Shown here: positions 15,003-44,798 of the stretch, piece after piece
Numbering within the stretch: position 1 is the stretch's first letter
Layout of the letters: every line of letters begins with the position of its first letter
Source: Yuukianura sp. NJ FZ-2021
Taxonomy: Eukaryota
Length of the DNA stretch: 64,000 nt
Reading direction: 5' to 3'
NCBI GenBank assembly: GCA_046563655.1
Contig: CM102290.1
Location: forward strand, 6,200,001 to 6,264,000
Made by a program: the position numbers and the translations under genes
Notes under the pieces: model-generated
What the model was told of the DNA's origin: nothing
Database searches by the model: none
The model's input: only the letters and a program-made list of their open reading frames with translations

Positions 15003-15038
15003 GGAGTTCGAGTTGAGACGCCAAATAGTGTAGACGTG
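15003..15038 (+). promoter_or_regulatory. Putative internal Pol II promoter (Inr-like + DPE AGACG at +28)
   Basis: With A15005 as +1, AGACGTG starts at 15032 (+28), the spacing known for insect LINE internal promoters. Confidence 0.5.
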
Positions 15039-15089
15039 TCACAAATCTCTCCTCTCCTCATTGTCACGAAGCTTAACCCAATACACAAC

Positions 15090-16166: not shown

Positions 16167-16859
16167 CTCAGCACCACCTAACACTTATTTACGCGTCCCA
16201 TTTAAATATATATTAACGTCACAAAATTTAACCTAACTTAAGTCTGCACTGCTTAAAATTTTAATGTAACAAACTCCAACTCGAACTCCCTCTCCATGGG
16301 CTGCGGGCCCGCAGGGAGAGTACTTTACAAATAAAAAAAAAAAAAAAAAAAATGGTACTCTGTTTCATCATCCTGTTCATTCGACTTGGAAATCTAAGAA
16401 ACAAAAGAAAGAGCGGAGTTCGAGACGTCCCACCACCACCATCGGCCCCACCAGTAAGATACCGACCTAGGACGCAGAATCCGGCTCTCACCCAGTCACA
16501 ACCGAATCTAAATCGGACTATAGTAATTACCGAGGAGGACGACCTAATCTACTGAACCGAAAAATCAAAATTCAGAAACGGAACTACGGGATCGGAAACG
16601 GAATTCAACTTCCTCATAAACCATAGAATTATGATTTGAATGGACAGGACGAATGCAATGAGAAGCCTAAGTTTCACTTTACTCTAATATACATATTTAT
16701 AATAATTTTGAAATTTCAAATCAACTTCTAATTAACCTTCTTATTATGCAGAATACCGGAGAGGTCCCTCACTACTCCACATTCAACCACCTTTACTTTC
16801 ACTCGGTATAAGGAGGGAGAAAGTGGAGAAAGGAGGCCTCTACAAAGAAACGGGGCGAA

Positions 16860-17426
16860 TGCTAATTTCGGTATTCCCCCGTAAAGGGTACTGACCTAGC
16901 GTTAACACTGCGGCGATTTCTCCCGGGCGGATAGATCAAAAGGATGCGCCAAGGACACAGTCATACTTAACCATTCACACAACAATCAAAATGCAAATCC
17001 TCTTTGTCATGGGAATCAAAGTCATCTGGTTATCTGCTTTCACGTCACCTACATAGAATAAGTCAACTTTTTAGAATAATAAGTCGAAGTAAGTTTAACT
17101 TATCATTAGAATAGGACACTTATCTGATAGGTAAGAAGTAACGAGGTAGTACTTCCAACGTCCAAGTTTTCAAGATTTTCGCAAAATTGAACTTATTCGG
17201 AATTTCTTTCTGTCCCACTTTTGTTTTCAAACTGAAATTTAGAGCAGTGCAAAAGTCCTAGTGCTATAGTACTTAAGATATAGAGGTGCAGTTGCTCCTC
17301 TTTTGTTGTGTTGGGAGTGTTACACACACACTTTCAGTACAAGGACATTGTATGCCCTTGCACTGAGAGTGAGTGTGTGTGTGAGAGGATCTATCAATAA
17401 AGGCAGTTGATACGCAGCATCCAACA
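16860..17426 (+). repeat. 3' LTR of element 1 (start tentative)
   Basis: TG follows purine tract AAAGAAACGGGGCGAA; contains TTCAGT and AATAAA (~17396); ends in CA at the satellite junction. No second LTR to confirm. Confidence 0.6.
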
Positions 17427-20400: not shown

Positions 20401-23400
20401 GGGTGCCGTATACCAACCCAAGATAAAATCCTAGACAGAGCGGTTCATCCAGACTTTTAAGTACACGCTAACCGGATTTAATTGCGATATATCCACGATA
20501 ATTAAACTTGGGTTCCTGTAGTACTTTTCATGAGGATTTCAGAAAAGTAACTCATTTTCACGCGGCATCGCTACGCGTGGAAGTTTTTCGAATGATTTGT
20601 TTTGAAACAAATTTTCATAAAATAGAGTCACGAGATGAGGGACGACACAGCAAGTGAAAGTGGGTTCCTGTAGCCCTTTTTATGAGGATTTCAAAAATAT
20701 AGTGGACTTTTACCCAGCATCGTGCCGGAATGCATTTCTTTTGAATTCTTTGTTTTGAAACATAATTTTTCATAAATAAAGGTAACAAGATGAGGGACGA
20801 CGCAGCAAGTGAAAGTGGGTTCCTGTAGCACTTTTTATGATGATTTCAAAAATGTAATTTACTTTCTGTTCATTCTCACATTTGCATGTTCATTCTCACA
20901 AATTTAAGTCGTTTTGCGTCAAAATGGTGCTCGACATTGCCCTGGGTGCCGTATACCAACCCAAGATAAAATCCGAGACAGAGCGATTCATCCAGACTTT
21001 TAAGTACACGCTAACCGGATTTAATTGCGATATATCCACGATAATTAAACTTGGGTTCCTGTAGTACTTTTCAGGAGGATTTCAGAAAAGTAACTCATTT
21101 TCACCCGGCATTGCTACGCGTGGGAGTTTTTCGAATGATTTGTTTTGAAATAAATTTTCATAAAATAAAGTCACGAGATGAGGGACGACACAGCAAGTGA
21201 AAATGGGTTCCTGTAGCCCTTTTTATGAGGATTTCAAAAATATAGTTGACTTTTAGCCAACATCGTTCCGGAATGCATTTCTTTTGAATTCTTTGTTTTG
21301 AAACATGAATTTTCATAAATAAAGGTAACAAAATGAGGGACGACACAGCAAGTGAAAGTGGGTTCCTGTAGCACTTTTTATGAGGATTTCAAAAATGTAA
21401 TTTACTTTCTGTTCATTCTCACATTTGCATGTTCATTCTCACAAATTTAAGTCGTTTTGCGTCAAAATGGTGCTCGACATTGCCCTGGGTGCCGTATACC
21501 AACCCAAGATAAAATCCGAGACAGAGCGGTTCATCCAGACTTTTAAGTACACGCTAACCGGATTTAATTGCGATATATCCACGATAATTAAACTTGGGTT
21601 CCTGTAGTACTTTTCAGGAGGATTTCAGAAAGGTAACTCATTTTCACCCGGCATTGCTACGCGTGGGAGTTTTTCGAATGATTTCTTTTGATATAAATTT
21701 TCATAAAATAAAGTCACGAGATGAGGGACGACACAGCAAGTGAAAGTGGGTTCCTGTAGCCCTTTTTATGAGGATTTCAAAAATATAGTGGACTTTTACC
21801 CAGCATCGTGCCGGAATGCATTTCTTTTGAATTCTTTGTTTTGAAACATAAACATTCATAAATAAAGGTAACAAGATGAGGGACGACACAGCAAGTGAAA
21901 TTGGGTTCCTGTAGCACTTTTTATGAGGATTTCAAAAATGTAATTTACTTTCTGTTCATTCTCACATTTGCATGTTCATTCTCACAAATTTAAGTCGTTT
22001 TGCGTCAAAATGGTGCTCGACATTGCCCTGGGTGCCGTATACCAACCCAAGATAAAATCCGAGACAGAGCGGTTCATCCAGACTTTTAAGTACACGCTAA
22101 CCGGATTTAATTGCGATATATCCACGATAATTAAACTTGGGTTCCTGTAGTACTTTTCAGGAGGATTTCAGAAAAGTAACTCATTTTCACCCGGCATTGC
22201 TACGCGTGGGAGTTTTTCGAATGATTTGTTTTGAAATAAATTTTCATAAAATAAAGTCACGAGATGAGGGACGACACAGCAAGTGAAAATGGGTTCCTGT
22301 AGCCCTTTTTATGAGGATTTCAAAAATATAGTTGACTTTTAGCCAACATCGTTCCGGAATGCATTTCTTTTGAATTCTTTGTTTTGAAACATGAATTTTC
22401 ATAAATAAAGGTAACAAAATGAGGGACGACACAGCAAGTGAAAGTGGGTTACTGTAGCACTTTTTATGAGGATTTCAAAAATGTAATTTACTTTCTGTTC
22501 ATTCTCACATTTGCATGTTCATTCTCACAAATTTAAGTCGTTTTGCGTCAAAATGGTGCTCGACATTGCCCTGGGTGCCGTATACCAACCCAAGATAAAA
22601 TCCGAGACAGAGCGGTTCATCCAGACTTTTAAGTACACGCTAACCGGATTTAATTGCGATATATCCACGATAATTAAACTTGGGTTCCTGTAGTACTTTT
22701 CAGGAGGATTTCAGAAAGGTAACTCATTTTCACCCGGCATTGCTACGCGTGGGAGTTTTTCGAATGATTTCTTTTGATATAAATTTTCATAAAATAAAGT
22801 CACGAGATGAGGGACGACACAGCAAGTGAAAGTGGGTTCCTGTAGCCCTTTTTATGAGGATTTCAAAAATATAGTGGACTTTTACCCAGCATCGTGCCGG
22901 AATGCATTTCTTTTGAATTCTTTGTTTTGAAACATAAACATTCATAAATAAAGGTAACAAGATGAGGGACGACACAGCAAGTGAAATTGGGTTCCTGTAG
23001 CACTTTTTATGAGGATTTCAAAAATGTAATTTACTTTCTGTTCATTCTCACATTTGCATGTTCATTCTCACAAATTTAAGTCGTTTTGCGTCAAAATGGT
23101 GCTCGACATTGCCCTGGGTGCCGTATACCAACCCAAGATAAAATCCGAGACAGAGCGGTTCATCCAGACTTTTAAGTACACGCTAACCGGATTTAATTGC
23201 GATATATCCACGATAATTAAACTTGGGTTCCTGTAGTACTTTTCAGGAGGATTTCAGAAAAGTAACTCATTTTCACACGGCATTGCTACGCGTGGGAGTT
23301 TTCGAATGATTTGTTTTGAAATAAATTTTCATAAAATAAAGTCACGAGATGAGGGACGACACAGCAAGTGAAAGTGGGTTCCTGTAGGCCTTTTTATGAG

Positions 23401-25949
23401 GATTTCAAAAATATAGTGGACTTTTACCCAGCATCGTGCCGGAATGCATTTCTTTTGAATTCTTTGTTTTGAAACATAATTTTTCATAAATAAAGTTAAC
23501 AAGATGAGGGACGACGCAGCAAGTGAAAGTGGGTTCCTGTAGCACTTTTTATGATGATTTCAAAAATGTAATTTACTTTCTGTTCATTCTCACATTTGCA
23601 TGTTCATTCTCACAAATTTAAGTCGTTTTGCGTCAAAATGGTGCTCGACATTGCCCTGGGTGCCGTATACCAACCCAAGATAAAATCCGAGACAGAGCGA
23701 TTCATCCAGACTTTTAAGTACACGCTAACCGGATTTAATTGCGATATATCCACGATAATTAACTTGGGTTCCTGTAGTACTTTTCAGGAGGATTTCAGAA
23801 AAGTAACTCATTTTCACCCAGCATTGCTACGCGTGGGAGTTTTTCGAATGATTTGTTTTGAAATAAATTTTCATAAAATAAAGTCACGAGATGAGGGACG
23901 ACACAGCAAGTGAAAATGGGTTCCTGTAGCCCTTTTTATGAGGATTTCAAAAATATAGTTGACTTTTAGCCAACATCGTTCCGGAATGCATTTCTTTTGA
24001 ATTCTTTGTTTTGAAACATGAATTTTCATAAATAAAGGTAACAAAATGAGGGACGACACAGCAAGTGAAAGTGGGTTCCTGTAGCACTTTTTATGAGGAT
24101 TTCAAAAATGTAATTTACTTTCTGTTCATTCTCACATTTGCATGTTCATTCTCACAAATTTAAGTCGTTTTGCGTCAAAATGGTGCTCGACATTGCCCTG
24201 GGTGCCGTATACCAACCCAAGATAAAATCCGAGACAGAGCGGTTCATCCAGACTTTTAAGTACACGCTAACCGGATTTAATTGCGATATATCCACGATAA
24301 TTAAACTTGGGTTCCTGTAGTACTTTTCAGGAGGATTTCAGAAAAGTAACTCATTTTCACACGGCATTGCTACGCGTGGGAGTTTTCGAATGATTTGTTT
24401 TGAAATAAATTTTCATAAAATAGAGTCACGAGATGAGGGACGACACAGCAAGTGAAAGTGGGTTCCTGTAGCCCTTTTTATGAGGATTTCAAAAATATAG
24501 TGGACTTTTACCCAGCATCGTGCCGGAATGCATTTCTTTTGAATTCTTTGTTTTGAAACATAATTTTTCATAAATAAAGGTAACAAGATGAGGGACGACG
24601 CAGCAAGTGAAAGTGGGTTCCTGTAGCACTTTTTATGATGATTTCAAAAATGTAATTTACTTTCTGTTCATTCTCACATTTGCATGTTCATTCTCACAAA
24701 TTTAAGTCGTTTTGCGTCAAAATGGTGCTCGACATTGCCCTGGGTGCCGTATACCAACCCAAGATAAAATCCGAGACAGAGCGATTCATCCAGACTTTTA
24801 AGTACACGCTAACCGGATTTAATTGCGATATATCCACGATAATTAAACTTGGGTTCCTGTAGTACTTTTCAGGAGGATTTCAGAAAAGTAACTCATTTTC
24901 ACACGGCATTGCTACGCGTGGGAGTTTTCGAATGATTTGTTTTGAAATAAATTTTCATAAAATAGAGTCACGAGATGAGGGACGACACAGCAAGTGAAAG
25001 TGGGTTCCTGTAGCCCTTTTTATGAGGATTTCAAAAATATAGTGGACTTTTAGCCAACATCGTTCCGGAATGCATTTCTTTTGAATTCTTTGTTTTGAAA
25101 CATGAATTTTCATAAATAAAGGTAACAAGATGATGGACGACACAGCAAGTGAAAGTGGGTTCCTGTAGCACTTTTTATGAGGATTTCAAAAATGTAATAT
25201 ACTTTCTGTTCATTCTCACAAATTTAAGTCGTTTTGCGTCAAAATTGTGCTCGACATTGCCCTGGGTACCGTACCAACCCAAGATAAAATCCGAGACAGA
25301 GCGATTCATCCAGACTTTTAAGTACACGCTAACCGGATTTAATTGCGATATATCCACGATAATTAAACTTGGGTTCCTGTAGTACTTTTCAGGAGGATTT
25401 CAGAAAAGTAACTCATTTTCACCCGGCATTGCTACGCGTGGGAGTTTTTCGAATGATTTGTTTTGAAATAAATTTTCATAAAATAAAGTCACGAGATGAG
25501 GGACGACACAGCAAGTGAAAATGGGTTCCTGTAGCCCTTTTTATGAGGATTTCAAAAATATAGTTGACTTTTAGCCAACATCGTTCCGGAATGCATTTCT
25601 TTTGAATTCTTTGTTTTGAAACATGAATTTTCATAAATAAAGGTAACAAAATGAGGGACGACACAGCAAGTGAAAGTGGGTTCCTGTAGCACTTTTTATG
25701 AGGATTTCAAAAATGTAATTTACTTTCTGTTCATTCTCACATTTGCATGTTCATTCTCACAAATTTAAGTCGTTTTGCGTCAAAATGGTGCTCGACATTG
25801 CCCTGGGTGCCGTATACCAACCCAAGATAAAATCCGAGACAGAGCGATTCATCCAGACTTTTAAGTACACGCTAACCGGATTTAATTGCGATATATCCAC
25901 GATAATTAAACTTGGGTTCCTGTAGTACTTTTCAGGAGGATTTCAGAAA
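17427..25949. repeat. Satellite array, block 2 (~15.7 monomers)
   Basis: Same 543-bp monomer; one shortened monomer near 25200 lacks the internal 20-bp duplication. Confidence 0.98.
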
Positions 25950-27037
25950 TGTAACAGTGGAGAAAGCTGTCAATCAATCTTCTAGTATTGATTGGCAGAT
26001 TTCTCACTGGAGCACGGGAGAAGGGAATGAATTAGTTCATTCCTTTTTCGCGTGTTCCCTAATCAGGAGGGAGACGACCCCAGGGTGCTGACTGATCACC
26101 CTTATCAGCTGCGAAAAGTTTACGACTTTTCGCAATCAACAGTAAAAGTCAAGTCATGAGTAATCTGACGTGACTTAAGTTTCACTTAGTTAGCATTACT
26201 AATTCAAATTGTAAGACAAAGTTTATGTCTTTTTGTAAGAAAATAGATTAAGAAAAAGACTAGAAAATTGATGATTTTAGAACTTTGTAGTTACAAAGTG
26301 TAGATTAGTTTGACATGTTTATTAGTTAATGAGTTCGAAGATCATGTTCTTGCATGTTCAGATCTTCTAATCTTTAGGGATAAATAGAGGATCGGTAGTC
26401 CGACCTCTTGGTCAGTTGTCCGGTAGCTTTTACTTAACTCTTAACTTCTAGTAGGCACTCGGCCAGCCTGGCCCTTAAGTCTAAATTAAAAGCATCTACT
26501 TTCACTTCCTTTTCTTCACTTCTTTCAACTTCTAACTTCCAACGAGACGCTCCAGCCACCGTGGGTCAACCCGGGGAGTACCACCACCAACCAAAGTCTC
26601 CAGCCAACCCAAGGAGAGGTCGAGAGGTCAATCCAAACATCAGTAAGGGGTAGCGCCAAGGCCAGGCCAAAACCTCAGGTATGTAAAGCCACAGCACTTT
26701 ACTAGTAAAAGTACTCAGGTCCTCCTGCTGGGTTATGCCCACAAATGTTTAAAGAGCATTGAAGTTTAGCTACTTTCACTTTCATTCCTACCGACTTCCA
26801 CCAACCAATCCAAGAACTTAGGAAACCCCAGGACTAGTGCTAGACTAGTAGGTCATCGTTCTAACATAGATCAGTTAGGGAACAACTTCATGAGAATAGG
26901 TATTCCGTTCTCTTTTCTTTATTATAGATTATCGTTAGATTGATTGATTATTTCTCTATCGCCATTGATAGGCGTAGGAGTATGTAGATTAGATGATGAT
27001 ACGATGATAGTTAGAGTGAGAGATGGGAGAGGTTTCA
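25950..27037 (+). repeat. 5' LTR (1088 bp)
   Basis: TGTAAC...TTTCA; direct repeat of 44799-45887. Only one 1-bp indel was seen between them by eye. Confidence 0.97.
26379..26417 (+). promoter_or_regulatory. Putative LTR core promoter (TATA-like + Inr TCAGTT)
   Basis: TATA-like ATAAATA ~30 bp upstream of arthropod-type Inr TCAGTT (26412-26417). Confidence 0.45.
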
Positions 27038-27039
27038 AC

Positions 27040-27058
27040 TGGCGACCGTGACAGGATT
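27040..27058 (+). other. Primer-binding site, tRNA-Arg
   Basis: TGGCGACCGTGACAGGATT 2 nt after the LTR; complementary to the 3' end of insect tRNA-Arg(UCG), as in 412/mdg1-type elements. Confidence 0.88.
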
Positions 27059-28142
27059 GGTTGTCATGGAAGTCGCTATTGTCTTTAGAATTTGTTTTCG
27101 GAACAATAGGGATTTAGTCAAGTAGACGGTAGAAGGGGTCATGGACACCTCTATTCATGCAGTAGTAGGTATGGTGGTAGAAAGGTACCACATTAGTACT
27201 GACCGGTGGACTGTCTTTTTGGGACAATAGGAGATGTTGTAGTAGGCACCCCTTTTCCTTCTAGGTTATTATTTTAGGGAAACGATAAGTTAGGTTAAAA
27301 TTTTTCATAACGATATTAGGTTAGATTTCTTCTAGGTAGGTTAACTAATTTTAAGGACTTTTAGTTACTAGACAATTGACCCTCCAAGGGCTAGGATAGG
27401 CCAATGGAGTAAGACTTTAAGTGATTGCAGAACTTGAGTTCCGTGTCCGGAAAGGATTGGATTGTATTATTCCTTGTGAAAAGGACCAGTCGGGTCGATG
27501 AGTTGACCTTAGCAAACGGTGGAATCATGACCGGGCTATAGTTGTGGCTTTGCCCTATAGCTGCTCTTTCGTCGGGTGACAATCAGAAAACTTGGTGAGG
27601 GTGGAGTCATGACCTCCCGAGAGACAGGTTAGTATGTAGGAACAAGATTGGGGAGTGGTCACTTAGAGATATCACGATGGATCCGAAGGGGCGTGGACCC
27701 GCCTTAACTGGGCGGTCCATCATAGTTAGGGTGTTGATGTAGGTGTTAGGGATGTTCCTTCAGTAAGATGGCTAAGGTAGTAGAGGGCCCAATGGACTAC
27801 CGAAGAATGTTAAGGCGTTTTCGTTTACATTTTTGTAAAAGCTGTGAAAGCTTATAGAGCTGTGAAAGCTCACAGAAATTCACAATCCATGCCATCTGAC
27901 CGGGCCAGTAGCCTAAGGCTCGTTGTCAATTTTGCTCTGAAGTATACCCCATGCCTCCGGAAGAGGGCATAAGAGATTTTAAAAATTTTTGGGATTGTGA
28001 GAGGAACTGGTCTGACCCTGAACTAAAGCCACATCAGAGGGGTGATTGACCCGAAGATTGATGGGTCACCTACCTTATACAACTTGGACGTTAAGGTTAG
28101 GAAACTGGAATTGTTGAAATTCCTTTTATTTATCTTCTTAGA

Positions 28143-29525
28143 ATGACGAGGATGATAGGAATTATTTCGATTTGGGTGATGACCTTGATCTGTACAACAA
28201 CTACAATGGCTACCGTTCTCAGTTATGAGAACGAGGACACCATCCGCTGTCACGAAGGGATGGAGTACCCTATGAGGAGACGGAGACAAATTTTGGATCG
28301 GAGGTGGAAAACTTCAAATTTAACTTGGGACGTCAAAGAAGACATTCCCAATACGATGGATTTTAAAGATCTGATAGAGAACTTTGAGTTTGCTTTTCAA
28401 AAATGGGAAGAGATTTCGAATTTTACGTTTAGTCGTAGAGTCAATGAAACTGTAGACATTTCAATTCAATTTGCAAAAGGCTATCATGGCGACGTCATGG
28501 TTTTTGACGGTGTAGGAGGGATCCTAGCACACGCCTACTACCCGAATGTTGGGTTAGGCGGAGACATTCATTTTGATGCAGCCGAAAATTGGACTACCAC
28601 ACCTGGTAGAAAAGGAGTAGATGTATTTTCAGTTATGGTTCACGAGATAGGGCATGCACTAGGCTTATCACACTCTGAAGTACCAGGATCAGTGATGCAT
28701 CCGATGTATCATCTCATTGACAAGAACATGTCTATTGGAAAACGGGATAGAAATGCCTTGCGTGATCTTTATAGATTTAGTCGAAATCTATCGCATGGTA
28801 GGAGGGACGCATCCCCTACCTTGGATAACTTGATACAAAGTATGTGTAAGGAGAATTTCGAACATGTTTTAAAGTGGGGAAATGAGTTCTTCATTTTTAA
28901 TGACAACTACCATTATCGCCTTTCAAAGGGAAAAGTTTCTTTTCCATATAAAGTTTTCAATGCCAACTATTTTCAACATTACCCTCCGAACATGGGAATT
29001 GAGTTAATTTTCCGATTTTATGAGAAAACATTTCTCATTGGTGATGATCAACTCTGGGAGTTTGGGTTCGCAGCAACATTATCACCCGGGTATCCCAAAC
29101 CAATGACAGAACTAGGAATCAATGAAACTAGAGTTATCGGTGTATTGTCATCCCCAAAACGACTGTATTTACAGTTAGAAAACGGCTGGAAACAGTACTA
29201 TATACATCAAAGATTCCTGCAAGAATGGACCTACTCACAAGGCATGCTACCCCAACTTACTAATCTCACCCAGGCGTTTAACGTAATTGATATCCATCCG
29301 GAAGGCTACACCACGTATAATGGTAGCCATATTTTAGATTTTGACACCAATTTGGTCTTACATTCCGTGAAGCCTTTAATGGACTATTTGGAGTTGCCAT
29401 GCAATTCCGTTGAGGCTTTGGTAGTGTCAGAACCTATCGGTGGCCTGCCGTTAACAGGAATAGCTTTAGGTAGTACCACTGTTGTAGTCATAATTGTGGT
29501 GTTAGTTTGCTGGTTTTGCACCTAA
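28143..29525 (+). CDS. Membrane-type matrix metalloproteinase (M10 matrixin)
   Basis: Signal peptide, short prodomain with RC and furin site RRRR, FDGVGGILAHAYYP, GDIHFD, zinc motif HEIGHALGLSHS, Met-turn SVMHP, hemopexin-like region, C-terminal TM; intronless. Confidence 0.95.
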   Translation: MTRMIGIISIWVMTLICTTTTMATVLSYENEDTIRCHEGMEYPMRRRRQILDRRWKTSNLTWDVKEDIPNTMDFKDLIENFEFAFQKWEEISNFTFSRRVNETVDISIQFAKGYHGDVMVFDGVGGILAHAYYPNVGLGGDIHFDAAENWTTTPGRKGVDVFSVMVHEIGHALGLSHSEVPGSVMHPMYHLIDKNMSIGKRDRNALRDLYRFSRNLSHGRRDASPTLDNLIQSMCKENFEHVLKWGNEFFIFNDNYHYRLSKGKVSFPYKVFNANYFQHYPPNMGIELIFRFYEKTFLIGDDQLWEFGFAATLSPGYPKPMTELGINETRVIGVLSSPKRLYLQLENGWKQYYIHQRFLQEWTYSQGMLPQLTNLTQAFNVIDIHPEGYTTYNGSHILDFDTNLVLHSVKPLMDYLELPCNSVEALVVSEPIGGLPLTGIALGSTTVVVIIVVLVCWFCT

Positions 29526-29659
29526 GGGTATCCAGTAGGTTTCGTACCTCTATTTATTTATCCTATTTATTGATTGAATCATTCGGAAAATAAACTAGTA
29601 CGCAGATAATAAGTCGGGTGGAGTTTATATGGTTTGTTTTATTCTAAAGTTAACGTGGA

Positions 29660-31210
29660 ATGAGCGAAGGAGGTTCAAGTCCACCGCGAACTAGAAAACA
29701 ACAACAAGAACCAGAGTTTGGAGTTCACGATTTGTCCATTGTTTTGAAACAAGCCAGAGGGAAGTCGAAGTCACCAAATCAAGGTGATCAACCCCCAGGC
29801 TCGTCTACAGGTGTTGCGGTACCGGAGGTAGGTACATTACCTCAGACTTCCAGACCAAGCGATTCAGGGATTATTGAAGTTAGTATTTCACAACTCGCTT
29901 CTGATATCGAGGAAGTACCGTCAGGCACAGACGAAACTTTTCGATCTATAGAGTCAGGAGGATCTGATCAGGAGGCTGACGTATCCTTAGAAAGCATAAC
30001 TAGTATCCTTTCTCGGAGAGATAGGGTTAAAAGTGAATCGGAGGCAAATAAAATTCCTGAAGGCGAGTCAAGTTCAATGGCTGATCCAACTAGTATGGCA
30101 CAGGCTTCTACCGCGCAGGTTGCTGCACCCCAAGCTGGTGCAAGTAGCACTGCAGCTACTGCAGGGAGCGTCATTCAAGCTCCACCTCCGACCAGCATGA
30201 TTGTATCGATGTGGACACCCCCAGGGGATGTTTTGTTTGAGGGGAAACGCGGGTTTCCAGCATCCAACTTTTTGAGCACGTTTAAAGCAATAGCAGCTAA
30301 CCAGCATTGGGACTCTTCAACTAAGGTGAAGAATTTCCCGTTGTATCTCCGGAAATATGCAAAGACATGGTTTTTGAATTTCATGACGGATTGGGAAAGA
30401 GACCCAGCCCATAAGGACGCGGCAGGGCAACCCATTGAGGTCACTTGGAAAGATCTGAAAGAAGCTTTTCAAACTGATTTCCGTTCTCGTTTAACGGAAG
30501 AGGAGCTTGAGTTCAAGCTCACTCAAATGAAAAGAGCACCCAAAGAATCTGTTGAGGATTATTGTGGAAAAATTGGTCGTTTGTGTGACCAATTGGATAA
30601 AAGTCAAGGTACGGTTATGAAGGAGGAGAAAAGAGTCAATTTTCTTTTGAAGGGACTAACACCAGACGTTAGTCAGGAAATTTTCTTGCGGCAACCGAAG
30701 ACGTCAAAGGACGTTATGAAGTTTTTGATTGAGAAGGAAAATTATGAGTTCATGATGAAGAGAAAGAAGACTAGCGGCGACGTTGGGAAGGTCACTGCTC
30801 AGTTACATAACATAGTAGTAGGCAATGACAGTGACCCAGAAGATTCTTTCAAGGATTCAATGAAGAAATTCGATAAAGCTCTGAAAGTTCAGGATCAGCA
30901 GAGAGGAAAATTCAAAGGCTACAGAGGAATGGCAGGTCATGGTTATAGAGGTAGGGCAATTCCAGGTCAAGGCCCACGCATACCTGTGAATCAGGTTTAT
31001 GGAGGCTTGGCAGCGCAAGCAAATGTTTGGCCACGCCCTAGATTCCCAGCTAACAACTTCCGAGGTCGAGGTCGCGGGTATGTGATGTCACTTGCCTGTT
31101 GGAACTGTGGTGGGCCGCATCGTATGATGCAATGCCCTAATCGACAGCAAGTTGCCACCTCATCCACGCAAACCACACAACCGCAGGGAAACGCCAGAGT
31201 GCATCAGTAG
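29660..31210 (+). CDS. gag: Gag
   Basis: Retrotransposon capsid-like region (AKTWF...TWKDLKEAF...ESVEDY...FLLKGL), RG-rich region, CCHC CWNCGGPHRMMQC. Confidence 0.93.
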   Translation: MSEGGSSPPRTRKQQQEPEFGVHDLSIVLKQARGKSKSPNQGDQPPGSSTGVAVPEVGTLPQTSRPSDSGIIEVSISQLASDIEEVPSGTDETFRSIESGGSDQEADVSLESITSILSRRDRVKSESEANKIPEGESSSMADPTSMAQASTAQVAAPQAGASSTAATAGSVIQAPPPTSMIVSMWTPPGDVLFEGKRGFPASNFLSTFKAIAANQHWDSSTKVKNFPLYLRKYAKTWFLNFMTDWERDPAHKDAAGQPIEVTWKDLKEAFQTDFRSRLTEEELEFKLTQMKRAPKESVEDYCGKIGRLCDQLDKSQGTVMKEEKRVNFLLKGLTPDVSQEIFLRQPKTSKDVMKFLIEKENYEFMMKRKKTSGDVGKVTAQLHNIVVGNDSDPEDSFKDSMKKFDKALKVQDQQRGKFKGYRGMAGHGYRGRAIPGQGPRIPVNQVYGGLAAQANVWPRPRFPANNFRGRGRGYVMSLACWNCGGPHRMMQCPNRQQVATSSTQTTQPQGNARVHQ

Positions 31211-31244
31211 GAAGGGCTGATGTCGAATCTAGTGCAAAGCCTTC
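31186..31244 (+). other. -1 frameshift signal (G GGA AAC + putative pseudoknot), element 2
   Basis: Heptamer 31186-31192 in gag phase; the -1 frame is open into pol. Stem GCATCAG/CTGATGT whose loop GAAGG is complementary to downstream CCTTC. Confidence 0.78.
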
Positions 31245-34200
31245 ACTAAAATCAAATAAAGTCGAAATTGTTCCGGTTTATTCGCTGCTTACCAATGTTT
31301 CATTTGATAATAACAGAATGAACTGCGGTACAGGGATGAATAAGGGCAATTTGATAACTACCATTTATCTGCAAAGAGAAGGAAATCTGAAGAAATGTTC
31401 CTGCTTAATTGACACGGGTGCAGGAATTAGTTTTATTCGAATTAATAACGTTCGTAGAGATGAGTTGAAGGAAGATGACTCAGGTCATAAGATACTCATG
31501 CCCAACAAAGAGAGATTTCCCGTTTTAGGAACTGTAGTCAGAAATGTCACATTCTCTCGGAAGGAAGGTGAATTCGTCACTCACAAGTTTCATGTGGTGG
31601 AAAAAGCTTTTTATGATGTCATCCTGGGAAATGATTTCCATGATGATCACAGTCTAGCTTTGAAGTTTACCAGATCAGGTGGAATCCATGGATCATTTAA
31701 ATATGACAGCATGCCCCAGCCACAAACTTTCAGTTTGTTGACTAAGAAGGCGTTAGAGATCGATATCAATATGTTGTATAAAGTTGAAGATTCACAGGTT
31801 GTTAGACATGAGCCATCCCAACCGAAGGTTTTAACTGTCGATGAAGTAATTTTGCCACCGTTTGCAACAACCAAAGTTAAAGTGTTTCCCATTCATCGCA
31901 TTCAAGGGACTTTAGCGTTTGAGCCGAATAACGTAGCATTGGATAAACTGGGAATTTGTATTCCGTATTTAGCCAATATTCCTGAGGGAGAATTCGATCT
32001 ACCCGTAGATAATCCTAGACCACATCCCGTCCGATTATATCGAGGAGTTAACGTGGGAAATATCTGTAGAGTTCATATTCGAGAAGTTGAATCGGAAGAA
32101 AACATTCGTGAATTGAGAATGCAGTCTACAAAGGAAAATATAGATCAAATTGACATAAACAAGGAATTACCTGAAGAAGAACAAAAACAATTACGAGAAC
32201 TGTTACTCCAGTATGGTGACTGTTTTGCTTGGAATCTAGATCAGCTAGGGAAAGCAAAAGATGTAATGTTTCGAATAGACACAGGAGATTCACTTCCGAT
32301 AAGTTGTCCTCCTTATAAGAAATCCCCGGCGGAAAAAGAGATCATTGATGCTGAGGTAAATAATTTATTGAAGGCAGGGATCATTCGAGAAAGTCGATCT
32401 CCGTGGTCGGCTGGTGTCTCTCTCGTTAAAAAGAAAGATAGTAATAAATATCGAATGGTAGTTGACTGGCGTCGATTAAATTTCGTGACGAAGACTGTGA
32501 ATTGGCCGATGGCCATAATAAGTGAATTGTTGTCTTCATTTAACGGTGCTCGATATTTTTCCTGCATTGATTTAATGAGTGGTTACATGCAACTCCCCAT
32601 CCATCCGGATGATGTAGAAAAGACAAGCTTCGTGACTCATTCAGGCACATATGAATACCTATACATGGGTTTTGGTCTCACCAACGCACCAGCAGCTTTT
32701 AGTGCATATATAAAAACAGTTTTGGGAAATAGAATCCATTCCATATGCACTGCCTATTTAGACGATGTGTGCGTTTTCTCCAAAGATTTCGCAAGCCATC
32801 TTAAGAATCTAGAGGAAGTGCTGCGACAATTTAGAGCTTTCAATTTAACGTTGCAGCCGCCCAAATGCCATTTTGCAAAAACAAAATTGGAAATTTTAGG
32901 ACATGTTATTTCTGGAGAAGGAGTTGCTGTTAATCCAGATAAAGTTAGAGCTATCGTGGAAATGCCACCTCCTAGAAATATTAGCGAAGTTCGAACATTT
33001 CTCGGCATGACCGGTTATTATCGACGTTTTATTTTAAACTACAGTCAGATAGCCCAACCTCTAACGAATTTAACGAAAAAGAATGCAAACTTCAAATGGG
33101 GTTCTGAGGAAGACGAGGCTTTTAACATCTTAAGACAAAAGTTAACTTCCGCACCTATTTTGGCTTTCTTTAATGAAAGTGCTGAACTTGAGTTACACAC
33201 TGACGCATCTCACAAAGGTATTGCAGCCATTTTGAATCAACGGAGTCCGGAAGGAACTCTTCATGTCATTGCATATGCTAGCAGAACTTACAGAGGAGCA
33301 GAAGCTCGTTATAGTACGACAGAACAGGAACTTTTAGCTGTCGTCTGGGGACTGGAAAAATATAGGGAATATATTGGATTCAAGGGAATTATCATTGTTG
33401 TAGACCATCATGCACTTTGTTACTTGAAAACTTGTCGGAATCTACGTAATTCTCGAATGGCTAGGTGGGCTTTACGCCTTCAGGACGTCGACTACGTCAT
33501 CAAACATGTAAATGGTAAAACACATGTCCAAGCCGATTGTTTATCCAGATTTCCAGTGGAAGATAATTCCGAATTTGTTGATGACTTTCCAGATAGTTGG
33601 TACAATTTACAGTTGATTGTTCCAGTAGACTTTACAGAGAAATTAGCTGAGAGACAGCAATTAGATGATCGGTTGGTGAGAATCATCCAGTCGCTCAAGT
33701 CATCCAAACGAAAGTTTAGTAAGAGGTTTAGCTTAGATGACGATGTCTTAAAATATAAATGCCCAAGAAGTCAGAATTTATTACCAGTGATTCCATCTCA
33801 CTGGGTGTCAACCATCCTACCTCATTTTCATGATAACGTCATGATGGGACACATGGGTGTCGCCAGGACATTAGAACGGGCTCGTCAGAGTGTATTTTTC
33901 TTCAAGATGGAGAAATTGATTACCCGTTATGTCAAGTCTTGCAAAACTTGTCAGCTTAGGAGATCGAGAAATACGAAACCAATTGGAAAATTGTGTCCGA
34001 TTCCGGTTGGAGATTTATTTGAGCGTGTGTCTGTCGATGTAATAGGTCCGCTTCCGACTAGTAAGTCAGGAAATAAGTTCATTGTGGTACTGGTGGAGTA
34101 CCTTTCTAGATTCATTTTCGCCAAGGCAATCAAAGCGAATAACACCAAAGCTATGCTTGACTTTTTGATGGACATTATCCAAACACATGGTGTGTTTAAA

Positions 34201-35262
34201 TCAATTCAGACGGATAATGCGAGTACGTTCCGTTCATCCTTCTTTAAACAGTTCAATTCTTTGATCGGAACTGTGAACTTGTACTCCACTCCGTATCATA
34301 GTCGAACCAATGGACTGGTTGAGCGAAGTAACCGTAGTATCGAAGAAATTTTATCTAATTATGTACTGCAGAGTCAAAGGGACTGGGATCGGTATTTAGG
34401 TTCCGCTGTTTTTGCTCTCAATACTGCAGTTCACAAAGAGAGCACTGGGTTTAGCAGCTATTATATCATGTATGGACGCCATCCGTTCCATCCTCTTGAC
34501 GTTGCGTTGGATACATCGCGACAATGGGAAGACATCCCATCACGGATTCGTAAAATGCACGAGGCCAGAGAATTGGCTCGGGTTGGTATTCAAAAGGCAC
34601 AGAAAAAGCAAGCAGGTTTGTTCGATCCCAAACGTCTCCCGTTAGAGTATGACATTGGAGATAAGGTTCTCATTAAAGTTAAAGTTGTCAAAGCTGGCCG
34701 AACTCGGAAATTGGCCATGCGGTATAAAGGTCCATATGTTGTTGTACAGAAGGTCTCACCCTTAGCGTATCATTGCTCACCTGTCGGTGCTGCATCGGAT
34801 GATGTCCCAGTTAGGGTACATATTGAAAATATGAAGCGTTATGTTGAAGATGATTTACTTCACATTTGTGAGAGACTTTCCGCTCCAGGAGTAGCGGCAG
34901 ATCAAGTTGGGGAAGACGGTTGTAATAGACCCACCCAAGAAAATTTTGATGACCTAGCCGAAAAGTTGAAAGGAATTTCGATCGGCAAGGATAATGCTAG
35001 AGCAGTTTCAAATGAGTTGACGAATATTTCGAATTTTGAAATACCGTTGGAGTCGGATGTTCCCAATGAGTTGGAAACCGATGAATTGGAAGAGGACGTG
35101 GAATCCTCTGATGTAGAATCTGAAGAGTTCTTAGAATCTTCTGAAGATGAAGAAATTAGACAAGCAGAGTTAAAAGATAAAGAAGTAAATGTCGAAGAGA
35201 AAAATGTAATTACGACAAGGTACGGCCGAGTAGTCCGAAAACCAGTTAGGTTCCTGGACTAA
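31186..35262 (+). CDS. pol: Pol polyprotein (PR-RT-RH-IN), from the frameshift site
   Basis: LIDTGA, YLDD, TDAS, HDNVMMGHMG..CKTC, VDVIGP/TDNA/VERSN, KGPY, acidic tail ending TRYGRVVRKPVRF; no stops. Confidence 0.97.
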   Translation, partial: GKRQSASVGRADVESSAKPSLKSNKVEIVPVYSLLTNVSFDNNRMNCGTGMNKGNLITTIYLQREGNLKKCSCLIDTGAGISFIRINNVRRDELKEDDSGHKILMPNKERFPVLGTVVRNVTFSRKEGEFVTHKFHVVEKAFYDVILGNDFHDDHSLALKFTRSGGIHGSFKYDSMPQPQTFSLLTKKALEIDINMLYKVEDSQVVRHEPSQPKVLTVDEVILPPFATTKVKVFPIHRIQGTLAFEPNNVALDKLGICIPYLANIPEGEFDLPVDNPRPHPVRLYRGVNVGNICRVHIREVESEENIRELRMQSTKENIDQIDINKELPEEEQKQLRELLLQYGDCFAWNLDQLGKAKDVMFRIDTGDSLPISCPPYKKSPAEKEIIDAEVNNLLKAGIIRESRSPWSAGVSLVKKKDSNKYRMVVDWRRLNFVTKTVNWPMAIISELLSSFNGARYFSCIDLMSGYMQLPIHPDDVEKTSFVTHSGTYEYLYMGFGLTNAPAAFSAYIKTVLGNRIHSICTAYLDDVCVFSKDFASHLKNLEEVLRQFRAFNLTLQPPKCHFAKTKLEILGHVISGEGVAVNPDKVRAIVEMPPPRNISEVRTFLGMTGYYRRFILNYSQIAQPLTNLTKKNANFKWGSEEDEAFNILRQKLTSAPILAFFNESAELELHTDASHKGIAAILNQRSPEGTLHVIAYASRTYRGAEARYSTTEQELLAVVWGLEKYREYIGFKGIIIVVDHHALCYLKTCRNLRNSRMARWALRLQDVDYVIKHVNGKTHVQADCLSRFPVEDNSEFVDDFPDSWYNLQLIVPVDFTEKLAERQQLDDRLVRIIQSLKSSKRKFSKRFSLDDDVLKYKCPRSQNLLPVIPSHWVSTILPHFHDNVMMGHMGVARTLERARQSVFFFKMEKLITRYVKSCKTCQLRRSRNTKPIGKLCPIPVGDLFERVSVDVIGPLPTSKSGNKFIVVLVEYLSRFIFAKAIKANNTKAMLDFLMDIIQTHGVFKSIQTDNASTFRSSFFKQFNSLIGTVNLYSTPYHSRTNGLVERSNRSIEEILSNYVLQSQRDWDRYLGSAVFALNTAVHKESTGFSSYYIMYGRHPFHPLDVALDTSRQWEDIPSRIRKMHEARELARVGIQKAQKKQAGLFDPKRLPLEYDIGDKVLIKVKVVKAGRTRKLAMRYKGPYVVVQKVSPLAYHCSPVGAASDDVPVRVHIENMKRYVEDDLLHICERLSAPGVAADQVGEDGCNRPTQENFDDLAEKLKGISIGKDNARAVSNELTNISNFEIPLESDVPNELETDELEEDVESSDVESEEFLESSEDEEIRQAELKDKEVNVEEKNVITTRYGRVVRKPVRFLD

Positions 35263-35392
35263 AGCCTTGCACATTGGATCTTTCGTGTCCAAGCGCTGTT
35301 GGATAATATAAACTGTAGGCCTGTAAACCATAGGCTTATTGACTAAAAAAATTTTTAGATATACAAAATTTGTCAGGATATTGAGAAAAACA

Positions 35393-36208
35393 ATGGATTC
35401 GAAGAACACAGAAGTGTCCAAACACGGACCGGCAAAGGAAAGCCATCTTCAGATCCAAAGAGAACTTACGTCACTGAGTGATTTGCCACTCATCAGCATT
35501 ATAAGAAAGCTGTGCGTAATGGACGCCTCCAAGTTCAAGGAAGCTGTTCAAGGGTACCCAAGAGTAGTAGAACTAGTAGAAACAGAGATCGATAGGGCAA
35601 TGGCCAACTGGGATACAGTAATAGAAAAATTTGAATTACTCAGCCTCGTACCCCCTGATCAGTTCGAGACGGAACAAAAATACGGATCTCACGAGAAGAG
35701 ATGGTACATGTCTCAGATACCGATTGATCACACACCCGTTAGGCATATTGACATATTCAGAATCCTACATTGTGGGTTCAGGTGTGATGCAGAGGTTTTT
35801 AAGGCGTTGTCTGCTGACGACCTTATAGAAATCGTAAACACTTTGAAGGTAGAAGTCTCCGCAGGAGCATGCTTTAGATCACGAACCCCGAGGTCAGTCA
35901 GATTTCATAAACAGCATTTTCAGGATTACCCGTTTAATTTTTGCAAATTGGCACAAGTTGTGAGAGAGATGAAAGGGGATGAATCAGTATACCAGCAGTT
36001 ATTGCAGAATTATAAGAGTGAATACGAAAAATACTTAAACTCTCTCAGCCCCAGGCAAAGACAAATGCGGGAGACTGTGAAGAAAGAATGTGCCGAAAAC
36101 CAAAGGAATGTTTCCGACGAATATGTCGAATTTGTGTGTCAGCTTTCAGATGCGAAAAATCGACTTTACGATTTTCAAATCCCAGCCTCAGCAGGAGGTC
36201 TTGAGTAA
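35393..36208 (+). CDS. Accessory paralogue 1, N-terminal F-box-like motif
   Basis: SLSDLPLISIIRKL..MDA; shares HEKxWYxxQxP and YxxxLSxRQ motifs with the next two ORFs; ATG follows an AG acceptor. Confidence 0.7.
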   Translation: MDSKNTEVSKHGPAKESHLQIQRELTSLSDLPLISIIRKLCVMDASKFKEAVQGYPRVVELVETEIDRAMANWDTVIEKFELLSLVPPDQFETEQKYGSHEKRWYMSQIPIDHTPVRHIDIFRILHCGFRCDAEVFKALSADDLIEIVNTLKVEVSAGACFRSRTPRSVRFHKQHFQDYPFNFCKLAQVVREMKGDESVYQQLLQNYKSEYEKYLNSLSPRQRQMRETVKKECAENQRNVSDEYVEFVCQLSDAKNRLYDFQIPASAGGLE

Positions 36209-36274
36209 AACATAACGTGGACATTAAGCTGATTTAACTGAGAATAGAAATACAAAATTTTGGTAGGAATAACT

Positions 36275-37045
36275 ATGGAATTGAAGCACACAGAGACAGA
36301 GGGAGAACCGGCTAAGAAACGCCGTCTTCACATCCAAAGGAACATTTCGTCACTGGACGATCTACCTCTAATCAATATAGCTAGAAAGCTAAGCGTTTTA
36401 GATGCGTCAAAGTTTAACGATGCTTTACATGCATATCCCAGGATCATAACCTTATTTGCTAGAGAGATAGAAAAGGTCATGACCAATTGGGATGAATTAA
36501 TCGAGACATTTAATTTGTTTGGAAGTTCAAGCACTTTTCACTGTGAAATTGAAATGCGTGTTTGCGATCATGAGAAACGATGGTATTTAGCACAATTACC
36601 AATAGAATTTGCTCCATTCAGTTGTATGGATGTATTTAGAATTTTGAATTGTGGCTTTGTGTGTAAAGTAGAAACATTTAGAAGTTTGGTGGCTAGAGAG
36701 CTCATAGAGTTAGTTGAAACTCAAGGTCACCACATCCATGCAGATCTACCGTATGGGCGTACGCCGCCAAAGACAGTAAGCTTTCGTAAAGATGTCATAA
36801 CGACATATCCATTTAACTTTATGCGAATTGTAACCGCCGTAGAAGAAACAAACGGAAAAGAGTCCGTGCGACAAGAATTGTTAGTTAAATACAAAAATGA
36901 GTACGATAAGTACCTGAATACACTAAGCTTCCGACAGAGGCGTATGCGTGTTGTATATAAGAGGAGATGCACTGAGAATGGTAGGGAGGTTACAGACGAG
37001 TATGTTGAATTTCTGTGTAGGTTTTCTGATAGATACAATCAGTAA
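36275..37045 (+). CDS. Accessory paralogue 2, F-box-like
   Basis: Clearly similar to paralogue 1 along its whole length (LHIQR..SL.DLPLI.I.RKL, DEYVEF.C..SD). Confidence 0.7.
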   Translation: MELKHTETEGEPAKKRRLHIQRNISSLDDLPLINIARKLSVLDASKFNDALHAYPRIITLFAREIEKVMTNWDELIETFNLFGSSSTFHCEIEMRVCDHEKRWYLAQLPIEFAPFSCMDVFRILNCGFVCKVETFRSLVARELIELVETQGHHIHADLPYGRTPPKTVSFRKDVITTYPFNFMRIVTAVEETNGKESVRQELLVKYKNEYDKYLNTLSFRQRRMRVVYKRRCTENGREVTDEYVEFLCRFSDRYNQ

Positions 37046-37172
37046 TAACTGAAAGTCATTAGTCCTAATAGCTGCAAGTAGCTTTAGTAGGAGGACTTGA
37101 GTAGTTGAATAAATATTTGAATTGGGATTTTTGATATTAAGGCATATATCAGAGGTTATAATATTTAAGGAA

Positions 37173-37940
37173 ATGGAGGGGAGAAGCGAGACTACAATGA
37201 AGCCGCTTGCATACACTCCACTCCACTTCACTGCTTTGGGATTCGACGTCCTAGAAATCATCATAAAAGAACTCAACGCTTTAGACGCAAACAATTTAGC
37301 TGAAGCATTTCCCGAACTTAGTAACGAAATAGCCTTAATTATTAGAAAAACAATGGACACAAGGTGTTCCATAGTCGAGCAGTTTGAACTTTGTGGAAAG
37401 CGATACCCAGATCGACCCGCTGTAAATGTAGTAGATGAACTGGATACAGCTAGACACGAGAAGCTGTGGTACTTGGCTCAAATACCTATGAAATGGAAAC
37501 ATGTAGAAATGACGGACGTCGTGCGCTTAATTCACTGTCCCTTCACGTTAAAACCTAGTGCAATTATCAATATCAGTGTAGAATGTTGGGTCGACTTAAT
37601 CGCAGATGCTGAATGGAATGTCATCCCACAGCGAACATTAATTTCGGATAGGCTTATTGGCGTCAAATGTGTCAAGAAGCCTCATAATGTATTCACCATG
37701 TTCACATACAGTCGATTGGCCAAAGTTTTACGCGAACTGGGAGAACCAGAAAGCAAATGGAAGCCATTTACTTACGTGTTTCAAATACGATATCAGGCTT
37801 ATTGGGATACGTTGTCCCCAAGACGACAACAGATTCGGAATGATTTGTTTCGAATTTTTCAAGGTTTTGGATTTTATATGGACGAAGAAAAAGCAGAATA
37901 CATTTGTCAAACAGATCGAAGTCTCAGAGATTTTGACTAG
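37173..37940 (+). CDS. Accessory paralogue 3, F-box-like (most diverged)
   Basis: FTALGFDVLEIIIKELNALDANNL fits the F-box pattern; HEKLWYLAQIP and TLSPRRQQIR are shared with the paralogues. Confidence 0.68.
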   Translation: MEGRSETTMKPLAYTPLHFTALGFDVLEIIIKELNALDANNLAEAFPELSNEIALIIRKTMDTRCSIVEQFELCGKRYPDRPAVNVVDELDTARHEKLWYLAQIPMKWKHVEMTDVVRLIHCPFTLKPSAIINISVECWVDLIADAEWNVIPQRTLISDRLIGVKCVKKPHNVFTMFTYSRLAKVLRELGEPESKWKPFTYVFQIRYQAYWDTLSPRRQQIRNDLFRIFQGFGFYMDEEKAEYICQTDRSLRDFD

Positions 37941-38024
37941 TGGTTTAGTGTTAGGAACCACTAGCAATAGGTAGGTAGGTTAGCATAATAATTTTCCTTC
38001 TTGCTTCTTGTACAGAAAAATAAA

Positions 38025-40400: not shown

Positions 40401-40946
40401 GCATACGAGCAGGTCGAAAACATACCTCCTCGTTCAAATTTGACCCAGGTCTACCATTGACGATTTCATAATCACATTACTTCATCCAGCTCAGAAGCTT
40501 CCGATTTTTTTTTTAAATTTAAATTATTTTAAATTTTCTTATTTTATTCCAAATTCCAGAAAAAGTTTTACGTTAAACTCTGTACGTTAACGTAATTGTG
40601 GGAAAGTTGAAAAGTCAGGAGAATTTAGGTCCGGAGATTTGGATGGTCAGAGTCGCATTGACACCGCCATCACCACTGGAATTCTATCAGGATAGCCGTT
40701 TCTTCTTTTAGGATTTTCTATTATAATAAGTTCTGGACATTTCGCTTGCGATAGTGTGATGAGGTCACTAAGGGATCACAGTCAATGGGAAAAAGTAATT
40801 TAAGAGTCATAAATGTCAGAAACTTCAGAAAAACTGCATTTAGCGAACTCTCAGGATCGACATTAGAATTGCTGAAAGTATAACAAAAAAAAGGAAATAA
40901 GTTGGGGAAGAATGATTTTCCCGTAATTATAATTTAAATTTTAGAT

Positions 40947-41879: not shown

Positions 41880-41911
41880 CAGATTCCGAGTCATCAAGAA
41901 GACTCACCAAG

Positions 41912-42898: not shown

Positions 42899-42914
42899 AT
42901 ATTTCAATTCCAGA

Positions 42915-44785: not shown

Positions 44786-44798
44786 AAGTTGGGGAAGA
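44786..44798 (+). other. Polypurine tract
   Basis: AAGTTGGGGAAGA immediately before the 3' LTR TG. Confidence 0.8.

Follow-up and report, generated by a model that had tools for sequence, protein, structure and literature searches.

We have found a matrix metalloproteinase (MMP, or matrixin) gene inside a complete, env-bearing Ty3/gypsy long terminal repeat (LTR) element of Yuukianura sp. NJ FZ-2021. The element lies at 25950-45887 of a 64,000-nucleotide stretch of contig CM102290.1 (GenBank assembly GCA_046563655.1, positions 6,200,001 to 6,264,000 of the forward strand), which was analyzed as a whole and is called the window here; all coordinates are counted from its first letter. It is 19,938 bp (19.9 kb) long and carries the MMP upstream of gag. 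We propose, with a probability of roughly 0.6, that the MMP is an accessory gene of an errantivirus-like element, that it is maintained by selection and that its product acts as a surface protease aiding the spread of particles.

The element was delimited by its ends and by its insertion site. The two LTRs, identified by blastn of the element ends, differ by a single 1-nt indel and begin and end with TG and CA. The host sequence is a tandem satellite of 543-bp monomers that are 97-100% identical and number at least 43 copies, and the insertions interrupt this array. With a slash marking the edge of the element, the 5' flank reads ...TTTCA GAAA/TGTAAC... and the 3' flank reads ...GGTTTCA/GAAA AGTAACTC. 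The unbroken satellite monomer TTTCAGAAAAGTAACTC has a single GAAA and the element is flanked by GAAA on both sides, which identifies a 4-bp target duplication. A primer-binding site (PBS) follows the 5' LTR and a polypurine tract (PPT) precedes the 3' LTR; all of the structural marks of a Ty3/gypsy LTR element are thus present, namely TG..CA ends, target-site duplication, PBS and PPT. Because the MMP sits between near-identical LTRs bounded by a 4-bp target duplication, it was reverse-transcribed and integrated as part of the 19,938-bp element, and the insertion into the satellite array is very recent. Contigs of three DNA runs from one sample were also matched to positions 27000-44800, and each of the runs gave coverage in every one of the 30 depth bins. 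These observations make it extremely improbable that the MMP lies outside the element, as a host gene trapped between two solo LTRs or as an assembly chimera. Such an origin could be suggested by the repeat-rich character of the region, with its satellite and several elements, and by the fact that no one run contig spans the whole element. It is countered by the LTRs and the matching duplications, which denote a single integration of 19.9 kb, by the complete depth coverage, by surroundings that consist of satellite rather than host genes, and by a deletion derivative (described below) in which the MMP runs straight into the element's 3' portion.

The MMP frame is open from 28101, has its first ATG at 28143 and runs unbroken to a stop 134 nt before gag (gap 29526-29659), in agreement with a first-pass annotation of this DNA, which had described an intronless gene upstream of gag. 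Pfam Peptidase_M10 (PF00413; MEROPS M10A) matched residues 54-210 over the full profile (E 8.1e-48, 162.7 bits against a cut-off of 24). The zinc motif HEIGHALGLSHS begins at residue 167, with HEIGHALGLSH at residues 167-177 and the Met-turn at M185. In an alignment of 52 sequences, comprising the MMP and 51 homologues, H167, E168, H171, H177 and M185 all fell in invariant columns, so the catalytic motif and Met-turn are intact, as that annotation had stated. The structural-zinc and calcium residues H115, D117, H130, H143 and E148 were also invariant, and D122 and G123 were at least 90% conserved. A phmmer search of solved structures aligned residues 55-326 with full-length human MMP-12 (3ba0, E 3.7e-38), an alignment running from the catalytic domain through the hinge into the first hemopexin blades. 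An AlphaFold model built from the 52-sequence alignment had a mean pLDDT of 79.5 and a pTM of 0.69, with pLDDT above 90 over most of the catalytic domain. This domain superposed on that of MMP-12 at 1.2-1.4 A over 157-158 columns (39-40% identity, TM 0.91-0.94), and the top structure matches of the model were full-length MMP-1, -13 and -12. The hemopexin domain scored just below its Pfam cut-off (21.0 against 21.3 bits); its cysteine pair, C235/C420, lies in columns that are at least 90% conserved, and it was modelled with the four beta-strand groups of a four-bladed hemopexin at pLDDT 75-91. By its sequence the gene is a genuine and apparently active-type matrixin, and its product is probably catalytically competent.

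The hydropathy profile of the protein has only two peaks, at residues 4-26 and 432-460; the model places a helix near each end, one in the signal peptide and the other at 443-459. The sequence contains nine N-glycosylation sequons, and its six cysteines are residues 17, 36, 235, 420, 456 and 459. The furin site recognized in the first pass is RRRR at residues 45-48, which aligns with RRKR/RRRKR of MMP14a and MMP15. The propeptide before it is indeed short (~25 residues), gives no PG_binding_1 match and has lost PRCGxPD, as had been described. The description omitted R35-C36 (TIRCHEG), nine residues before the furin site, which aligns with the R-C of PRCGxPD in columns at least 90% conserved and is all that is left of a cysteine-switch prodomain. 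C36 is the only cysteine besides those of the signal peptide, the hemopexin pair and the tail. The claimed transmembrane anchor was likewise borne out in part: the C-terminus is hydrophobic, but the protein ends within it (...VVLVCWFCT) and has no cytoplasmic tail. A glycosylphosphatidylinositol (GPI) signal is as likely here as a tail-less transmembrane helix; GPI-anchored MMPs exist (MMP17/25). In the alignment the anchor resembles the bare hydrophobic C-termini of Lingula and Patella MMPs more than the transmembrane-plus-tail arrangement of vertebrates, and an 8-residue gap opposite the MMP14a/MMP15 insertion marks the absence of the MT-loop of membrane-type MMPs (MT-MMPs). Since it has no MT-loop, the protein is not, in its anatomy, a vertebrate-type MT-MMP.

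Potential splice signals were found near the MMP start. A strong acceptor-like signal, made up of a pyrimidine tract and TAG, has its last base at 28141, which leaves one base between it and the MMP ATG. The plus strand from 26400 to 44797 was scanned for YAG with a pyrimidine content of at least 78% in the 18 nt ahead of it, and only three such sites turned up. Use of two of them would start an exon 1 nt upstream of the MMP ATG and 9 nt upstream of that of env, the env acceptor lying at 38015 (two coincidences, against about 0.02 expected). A donor-like CAG/GTTAGT occurs at 27628 in the leader, downstream of the PBS; the 5' LTR contains an ATAAATA box at 26380 and a further donor-like CAG/GTATGT at 26679. 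Simple scanning to the MMP is unlikely because of the 19 ATGs in the leader. The MMP probably has a spliced subgenomic mRNA of its own from which it is translated, as env would have; env of Drosophila errantiviruses is made from a spliced mRNA. An AATAAA located 66 nt past the MMP stop was considered as a signal and set aside as uninformative, since it is one of six in the internal region.

Homologues were sought in several collections. A word-indexed protein search returned 257 proteins at E <=0.001, in which the best named matches were fish and mammal MMP14/15/24 (29-32% identity over ~62% of the MMP) and the highest identities, 41-57%, extended over only 18-40% of it. An exhaustive search of 1.84 billion representatives gave 7852 matches, 46 of them at E <=1e-30. 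No identity above 48% occurred among the best 150 of the 7852, and these identities concerned parts of the catalytic domain, so that the gene is not a near-copy of a known MMP among the public protein matches listed. Within the same best 150, the 15 top or longest proteins had no reverse transcriptase (RT), gag or env domain in Pfam that would mark a retroelement-fused MMP. Predicted viral structures gave matrixins of a nudivirus, granuloviruses, ascoviruses, an iridovirus and entomopoxviruses as top matches (16-35% identity, E 3.5e-24 to 1e-6), and no retroelement protein was among the 50 viral-structure matches listed. A search for viral matrixin loci gave 602 pattern matches; 183 of these were relatives, and 80 were kept. 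The closest contigs of the viral collection, L001 and L003, were considered as possible retroelements and rejected; judged by their ORF (open reading frame) lists alone, they have dense ORFs on both strands and a layout like that of DNA viruses. A metagenome scan with the MMP produced 27 pattern matches and no relative, and one with the pol alignment produced 27 short loci and no homologue of any accessory ORF.

The first-pass annotation had named a phylogeny against host and viral MMPs as a check on its view that a host MT-MMP had been captured. We constructed a catalytic-domain tree from 15 viral matrixins, 39 named cellular MMPs and the element MMP. The element MMP was placed on a long branch (1.5 changes per column) in a basal polytomy; 14 of the 15 viral proteins formed a clade of their own (91/89 support) with the element MMP outside it, and the vertebrate MT-MMPs formed another (100/98 support). 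Approximately unbiased (AU) tests rejected neither a grouping with MT-MMPs (p 0.54, the constrained tree being 2.4 log units better than the free search) nor a grouping with the MMP clade of large DNA viruses (p 0.47). A hemopexin match above the cut-off was present in one of the 15 viral matrixins; that of the element MMP is itself sub-threshold. The phylogeny, as far as these sequences go, names no donor. Capture of a host MT-MMP is possible, and a matrixin does lie within an LTR element; two hallmarks of MT-MMPs, the MT-loop and the cytoplasmic tail, are nevertheless absent from its sequence.

The run contigs contain other copies of the element. In the three runs 298, 417 and 192 contigs match it, with likeness ranging from >99% to <90%. 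One contig of 985 nt represents a diverged copy of the MMP; it covers 28406-29396 and shows 45 differences and 6 gaps. The MMP is therefore not confined to the copy in the window: more than one lineage of the element has it, and several diverged copies exist in the genome. The differences are biased towards synonymous changes. Fourteen of the 21 best-supported MMP variants are synonymous and the remaining seven are conservative replacements (I>F, I>V twice, R>K, D>N, S>A and R>Q); synonymous sites make up ~21% of the ORF, which gives a binomial p of 9e-6, or 0.0016 against a generous null of 33%. In the other ORFs 16 of 18 listed coding variants are synonymous, including 8 of 8 in pol. One contig combines a deletion at 28359 with an insertion at 28367 that jointly preserve the frame. 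Codon usage of the MMP correlates with that of the rest of the element at r 0.79, compared with 0.78 for gag, 0.85 for pol and 0.86 for env. Within the limits of these counts, the divergence of the MMP marks purifying selection that is somewhat laxer than that on pol.

A deletion derivative was also present in the run contigs, in which 28672 (in the third zinc-histidine codon) is joined to 41801. It keeps the leader and the first 177 MMP codons, resumes at the end of an orphan ORF and then skips again, from 41857 to 42962. In run X1 it reaches about two-thirds of the depth of the full-length parts, and it accounts for an approximately doubled depth over 27594-28781.

These data bear on the possibility that the MMP is neutral cargo, derived from a processed host mRNA that entered the leader of a single element lineage by recombination. 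Capture of ORFs by LTR elements is described in PMC6431247 and PMC5408684, the latter of which reports bdelloid extra ORFs without significant departure from neutrality. Some copies of the present element have a truncated or frameshifted MMP, and a second env-bearing element in the window lacks the gene. We nevertheless regard neutral cargo as improbable. Besides the excess of synonymous variation, the catalytic and structural residues are all intact, codon usage is like that of the rest of the element, an acceptor-like site is located exactly at the MMP ATG, and the long branch (1.5 changes per site) denotes long residence or fast evolution during which the frame was kept. That the MMP is an integral and selected gene of the element is, in our judgment, very probable.

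We envisage the following as the most likely course for the gene and its product. The matrixin would have been acquired long ago from a cellular, or possibly viral, source and kept by selection on the element lineage. Its signal peptide would direct it co-translationally to the secretory pathway, where the nine sequons could receive N-glycans, and a minimal one-cysteine propeptide might, at most, confer latency. Furin would then cut at RRRR/Q in the trans-Golgi, the same compartment in which Env would be cut at RGKR. A tail-less hydrophobic or GPI anchor would display the enzyme on the surface of the producing cell and perhaps on the envelope of the particle as well. There it could cleave pericellular matrix, basal lamina or surface proteins, allowing enveloped particles to leave the cell layer and reach new cells.

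What the substrate would be is a separate matter, and that the role is breach of matrix or basal lamina as such is held only tentatively, by analogy. The first-pass annotation had noted that granulovirus MMPs are linked to breach of tissue and basal lamina, and this agrees with a passage of PMC4500397 in which the granulovirus matrixin, the nearest precedent in function, is proposed to degrade basement membrane and so to aid systemic infection. By comparison with these enzymes, a crossing of the basement membrane from soma to germ line, as the annotation suggested, would be a reasonable analogy. A more far-reaching version, in which an infectious invertebrate retroelement displays a furin-activated matrixin beside an F-type fusogen and cuts basal laminae, seems to us somewhat unlikely. 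If true, it could let the element pass from somatic tissue into the germ line, or from one individual to another through the barriers of gut or epidermis, as the retroelement counterpart of the granulovirus MMP, and it would be the first retrovirus-like element known with an extracellular-matrix protease of its own. Together with a dUTPase, an exonuclease and a triplicated orphan gene, such an enzyme would put the lineage nearer to complex retroviruses than to transposons in gene content.

The same anatomy would also suit a sheddase or receptor-destroying enzyme. In that case the MMP would clear the producer cell or the particle of the Env receptor, of adhesion molecules or of immune receptors, or might trim Env or a host factor, and would thereby aid release, prevent superinfection or blunt defence. 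Membrane-type MMPs such as MT1-MMP are known sheddases. A membrane tether without a tail would put the active site at the membrane surface, and the MMP and Env share furin dependence and hence a secretory route. Against this role, hemopexin domains are usually tied to recognition of matrix substrates, and no candidate substrate can be named. The sequence does not separate shedding from matrix breach, and we treat the sheddase as a serious rival to that role, if an unlikely one.

Several observations weigh against a selected surface protease that promotes spread. The second env-bearing element in the window has no MMP, so the gene is not needed by such elements generally, and the metagenome scans found no related MMP-carrying element outside this genome. 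The propeptide region was modelled at pLDDT <50, and latency through Cys36 is conjecture. As regards expression, the acceptor threshold was set after both sites had been seen. Further, gag sits behind a 1.1-kb leader and a 460-codon ORF with no strong acceptor before it; candidate routes to its translation are internal entry, reinitiation and a further splice. The variant counts come from contigs of a single sample and from the 21 best-supported MMP rows, with 1598 further rows for the whole stretch outside the table. Replacements amount to 7 of 21 in the MMP against 0 of 8 in pol, a laxer pattern, and part of the MMP variation probably stems from the deletion derivative. A 1-nt deletion at 28154 occurs in some contigs; this deletion and the deletion derivative mean that some copies carry a broken MMP.

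The coordinates of the features are collected in the table below.

Table. Features of the MMP-carrying element, in window coordinates.
Feature	Position	Strand	Remarks
Target-site duplication GAAA	25946-25949 (5' copy), 45888-45891 (3' copy)		4 bp
5' LTR	25950-27037	+	1088 nt, TG...CA; blastn of element ends
Leader	27038-28142	+	1105 nt, 19 ATGs
PBS	27040-27055	+	TGG start, 2 bases past 5' LTR; read from sequence
Matrixin (MMP) ORF	28143-29525	+	460 aa, one unbroken frame
MMP signal peptide	28143-28211	+	
MMP propeptide	28212-28286	+	Cys36 at 28248-28250, RRRR at 28275-28286
MMP catalytic domain	28302-28772	+	HEIGHALGLSH at 28641-28673
MMP hemopexin	28845-29402	+	
MMP hydrophobic C-terminal anchor	29454-29522	+	
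gag	29660-31210	+	Retrotrans_gag / Ty3_capsid (Pfam), CCHC knuckle
pol	31141-35262	+	-1 frame relative to gag; protease (DTG)-RT-RNase H-integrase
Slippery heptamer G_GGA_AAC	31186-31192	+	in gag register, inside 70-nt gag/pol overlap
Three tandem paralogous ORFs	35393-36208, 36275-37045, 37173-37940	+	271, 256 and 255 aa; between pol and env
env, F-type glycoprotein	38025-40400	+	Baculo_F, E 4.1e-7, 29.4 bits against cut-off 24.1
Orphan ORF	40947-41879	+	310 aa; no family match in Pfam
Stand-alone dUTPase ORF	41912-42898	+	328 aa; domain at residues 21-135, Pfam E 4.2e-31
Exonuclease ORF	42915-44483	+	522 aa; 3'-5' DNA_pol_A_exo1, E 2.9e-6, 27.6 bits against cut-off 23.6
PPT AAGTTGGGGAAGA	44786-44798	+	adjoins 3' LTR
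3' LTR	44799-45887	+	1089 nt; blastn of element ends

All of these ORFs lie on the plus strand between the LTRs. The gag and pol genes are predicted from sequence to be joined by a -1 frameshift; pol has a DTG motif close to its N-terminus followed by the Pfam domains RVT_1, RT_RNaseH, Integrase_H2C2 and rve in that order, and is distant from public sequences (best 35-43% identity). Downstream of pol, env has the features of a class I fusion envelope, with a furin site (RGKR, residues 172-175) followed by a hydrophobic peptide, and has two metagenome homologues at 47% and 42% identity. The three paralogous ORFs share 48% and ~25-27% mutual identity, match no Pfam family at threshold and give no informative fold match. 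Their common N-terminal motif, (D)LPLIxIIRKL...DA, is F-box-like; an F-box assignment was rejected for want of Pfam support, the Atlas lead being weak (0.78) and the low-confidence model giving generic helical matches only (Z <=5.1). The orphan ORF after env has a weak Atlas pointer to SWIM-type clusters (0.92, 146 shared features). The dUTPase ORF has a C-terminal extension of ~190 aa to which no family was assigned. Scans of the window with Rfam and for tRNAs gave no matches.

The 13-nt PPT has exact copies at 34904-34916 and 40899-40911, making three in the window against none in 100 shuffles. These internal copies may be central PPTs, serving as extra plus-strand primers for a 20-kb genome. 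Many run contigs match only ~34882-34915, and the polypurine motif seems to be common to other elements. Some contigs of a diverged relative (~84% identical, 43698-44501) run into (TTAGG)n at 43688-43698, an arthropod-type telomeric repeat and a weak hint on the host or on telomere-adjacent copies.

Satellite stretches, in which several retroelements have landed, occupy 1-8000, 17500-25950 and 45890-52000 of the window. The same satellite holds, at ~8000-17500, another env-bearing Ty3/gypsy element that differs from the first, with pol at 9152-12685 and an ORF at 13369-15033 whose identity to the first element's F-type env is 22%; this second element contains no MMP, and no LTRs of at least 100 nt were found for it. 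An ORF at 52911-53861 with DUF5641 has the look of a Bel/Pao-type integrase tail. On the minus strand, an ORF at 60583-62546 gave a weak, sub-threshold match to Peptidase_C5, the adenovirus protease (E 0.0017), and could be a Polinton/Maverick remnant.

Env-bearing Ty3/gypsy elements are now known across animal phyla, and the way in which their particles pass tissue barriers on the way to the germ line or to new hosts is understood for only a few Drosophila elements. A selected, membrane-tethered matrix protease within such an element points to pericellular proteolysis as a testable step. The gene also shows that recruitment of host-type tissue-remodelling enzymes is open to retroelements as well as to large insect DNA viruses. 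It adds a third kind of mobile genome to those on which matrixins occur, a point of relevance to the movement of MMP genes between lineages, and the position of an ORF ahead of gag raises a question of translation control in a 20-kb retroelement.

The combination of a retroelement with a matrixin appears to be unreported, while matrixins and env-bearing LTR elements with accessory genes are each known singly. In searches of the full-text literature, whose coverage ends short of subscription journals and supplements, a retroelement-borne matrixin occurred in no title or abstract among those listed. The main text of an errantivirus study (PMC13524379) contains no metalloprote-, matrixin, dUTPase or exonuclease. 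The term metalloprote- is likewise absent from the main texts of a review of giant transposons (PMC6431247) and the study of bdelloid extra ORFs (PMC5408684), and the terms virus, transpos- and retro- are absent from the main text of a 2025 paper (PMC12587646) on MMP genes that have been transferred horizontally.

Among known proteins, the element MMP is comparable to the membrane-type MMPs of animals (MMP14/15/16/24, the GPI-type MMP17/25, and those of Lingula and Patella). It shares with them the signal peptide, the RX[K/R]R furin site, the hemopexin domain with its Cys pair, the C-terminal tether and the full set of zinc, calcium and Met-turn residues. It differs in having no three-helix prodomain and only a vestigial switch R-C, in being intronless and inside a retroelement, and in having neither the MT-loop nor the cytoplasmic tail of ~20 residues of the vertebrate MT-MMPs. 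The matrixins of large insect DNA viruses (granulo-, nudi-, asco-, irido-, entomopox- and hytrosaviruses) are likewise virus-borne, with 30-41% identity in the catalytic domain; they reside on dsDNA genomes of 100-230 kb, whereas the element MMP resides on a retroelement.

As an element, it has a close parallel in layout in the errantiviruses, env-carrying Ty3/gypsy elements of insects and other metazoans described in the main text of PMC13524379. These have the same order of LTR, PBS, gag, pol, env, PPT and LTR, with env after pol, and their Env is likewise F-type, with a fusion peptide and a furin site. The present element differs from them in its length of 19.9 kb and in its seven extra ORFs, one of which is upstream of gag. 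The bdelloid elements Juno and Vesta, which carry a dUTPase, a DEDDy exonuclease and a GDSL lipase in the account given in the main text of PMC5408684, likewise add a dUTPase and a 3'-5' exonuclease-type ORF; there the dUTPase is a pol domain and the exonuclease an extra ORF, whereas here the dUTPase stands alone. The giant planarian Burro elements offer a further parallel, in that a Burro-like element of Dugesia also has an accessory ORF upstream of its polyprotein (main texts of PMC6431247 and PMC5408684). In the bdelloid and Burro elements, as these sources present them, the extra ORFs mostly come after pol, whereas in the element described here one of them, the MMP, precedes gag.

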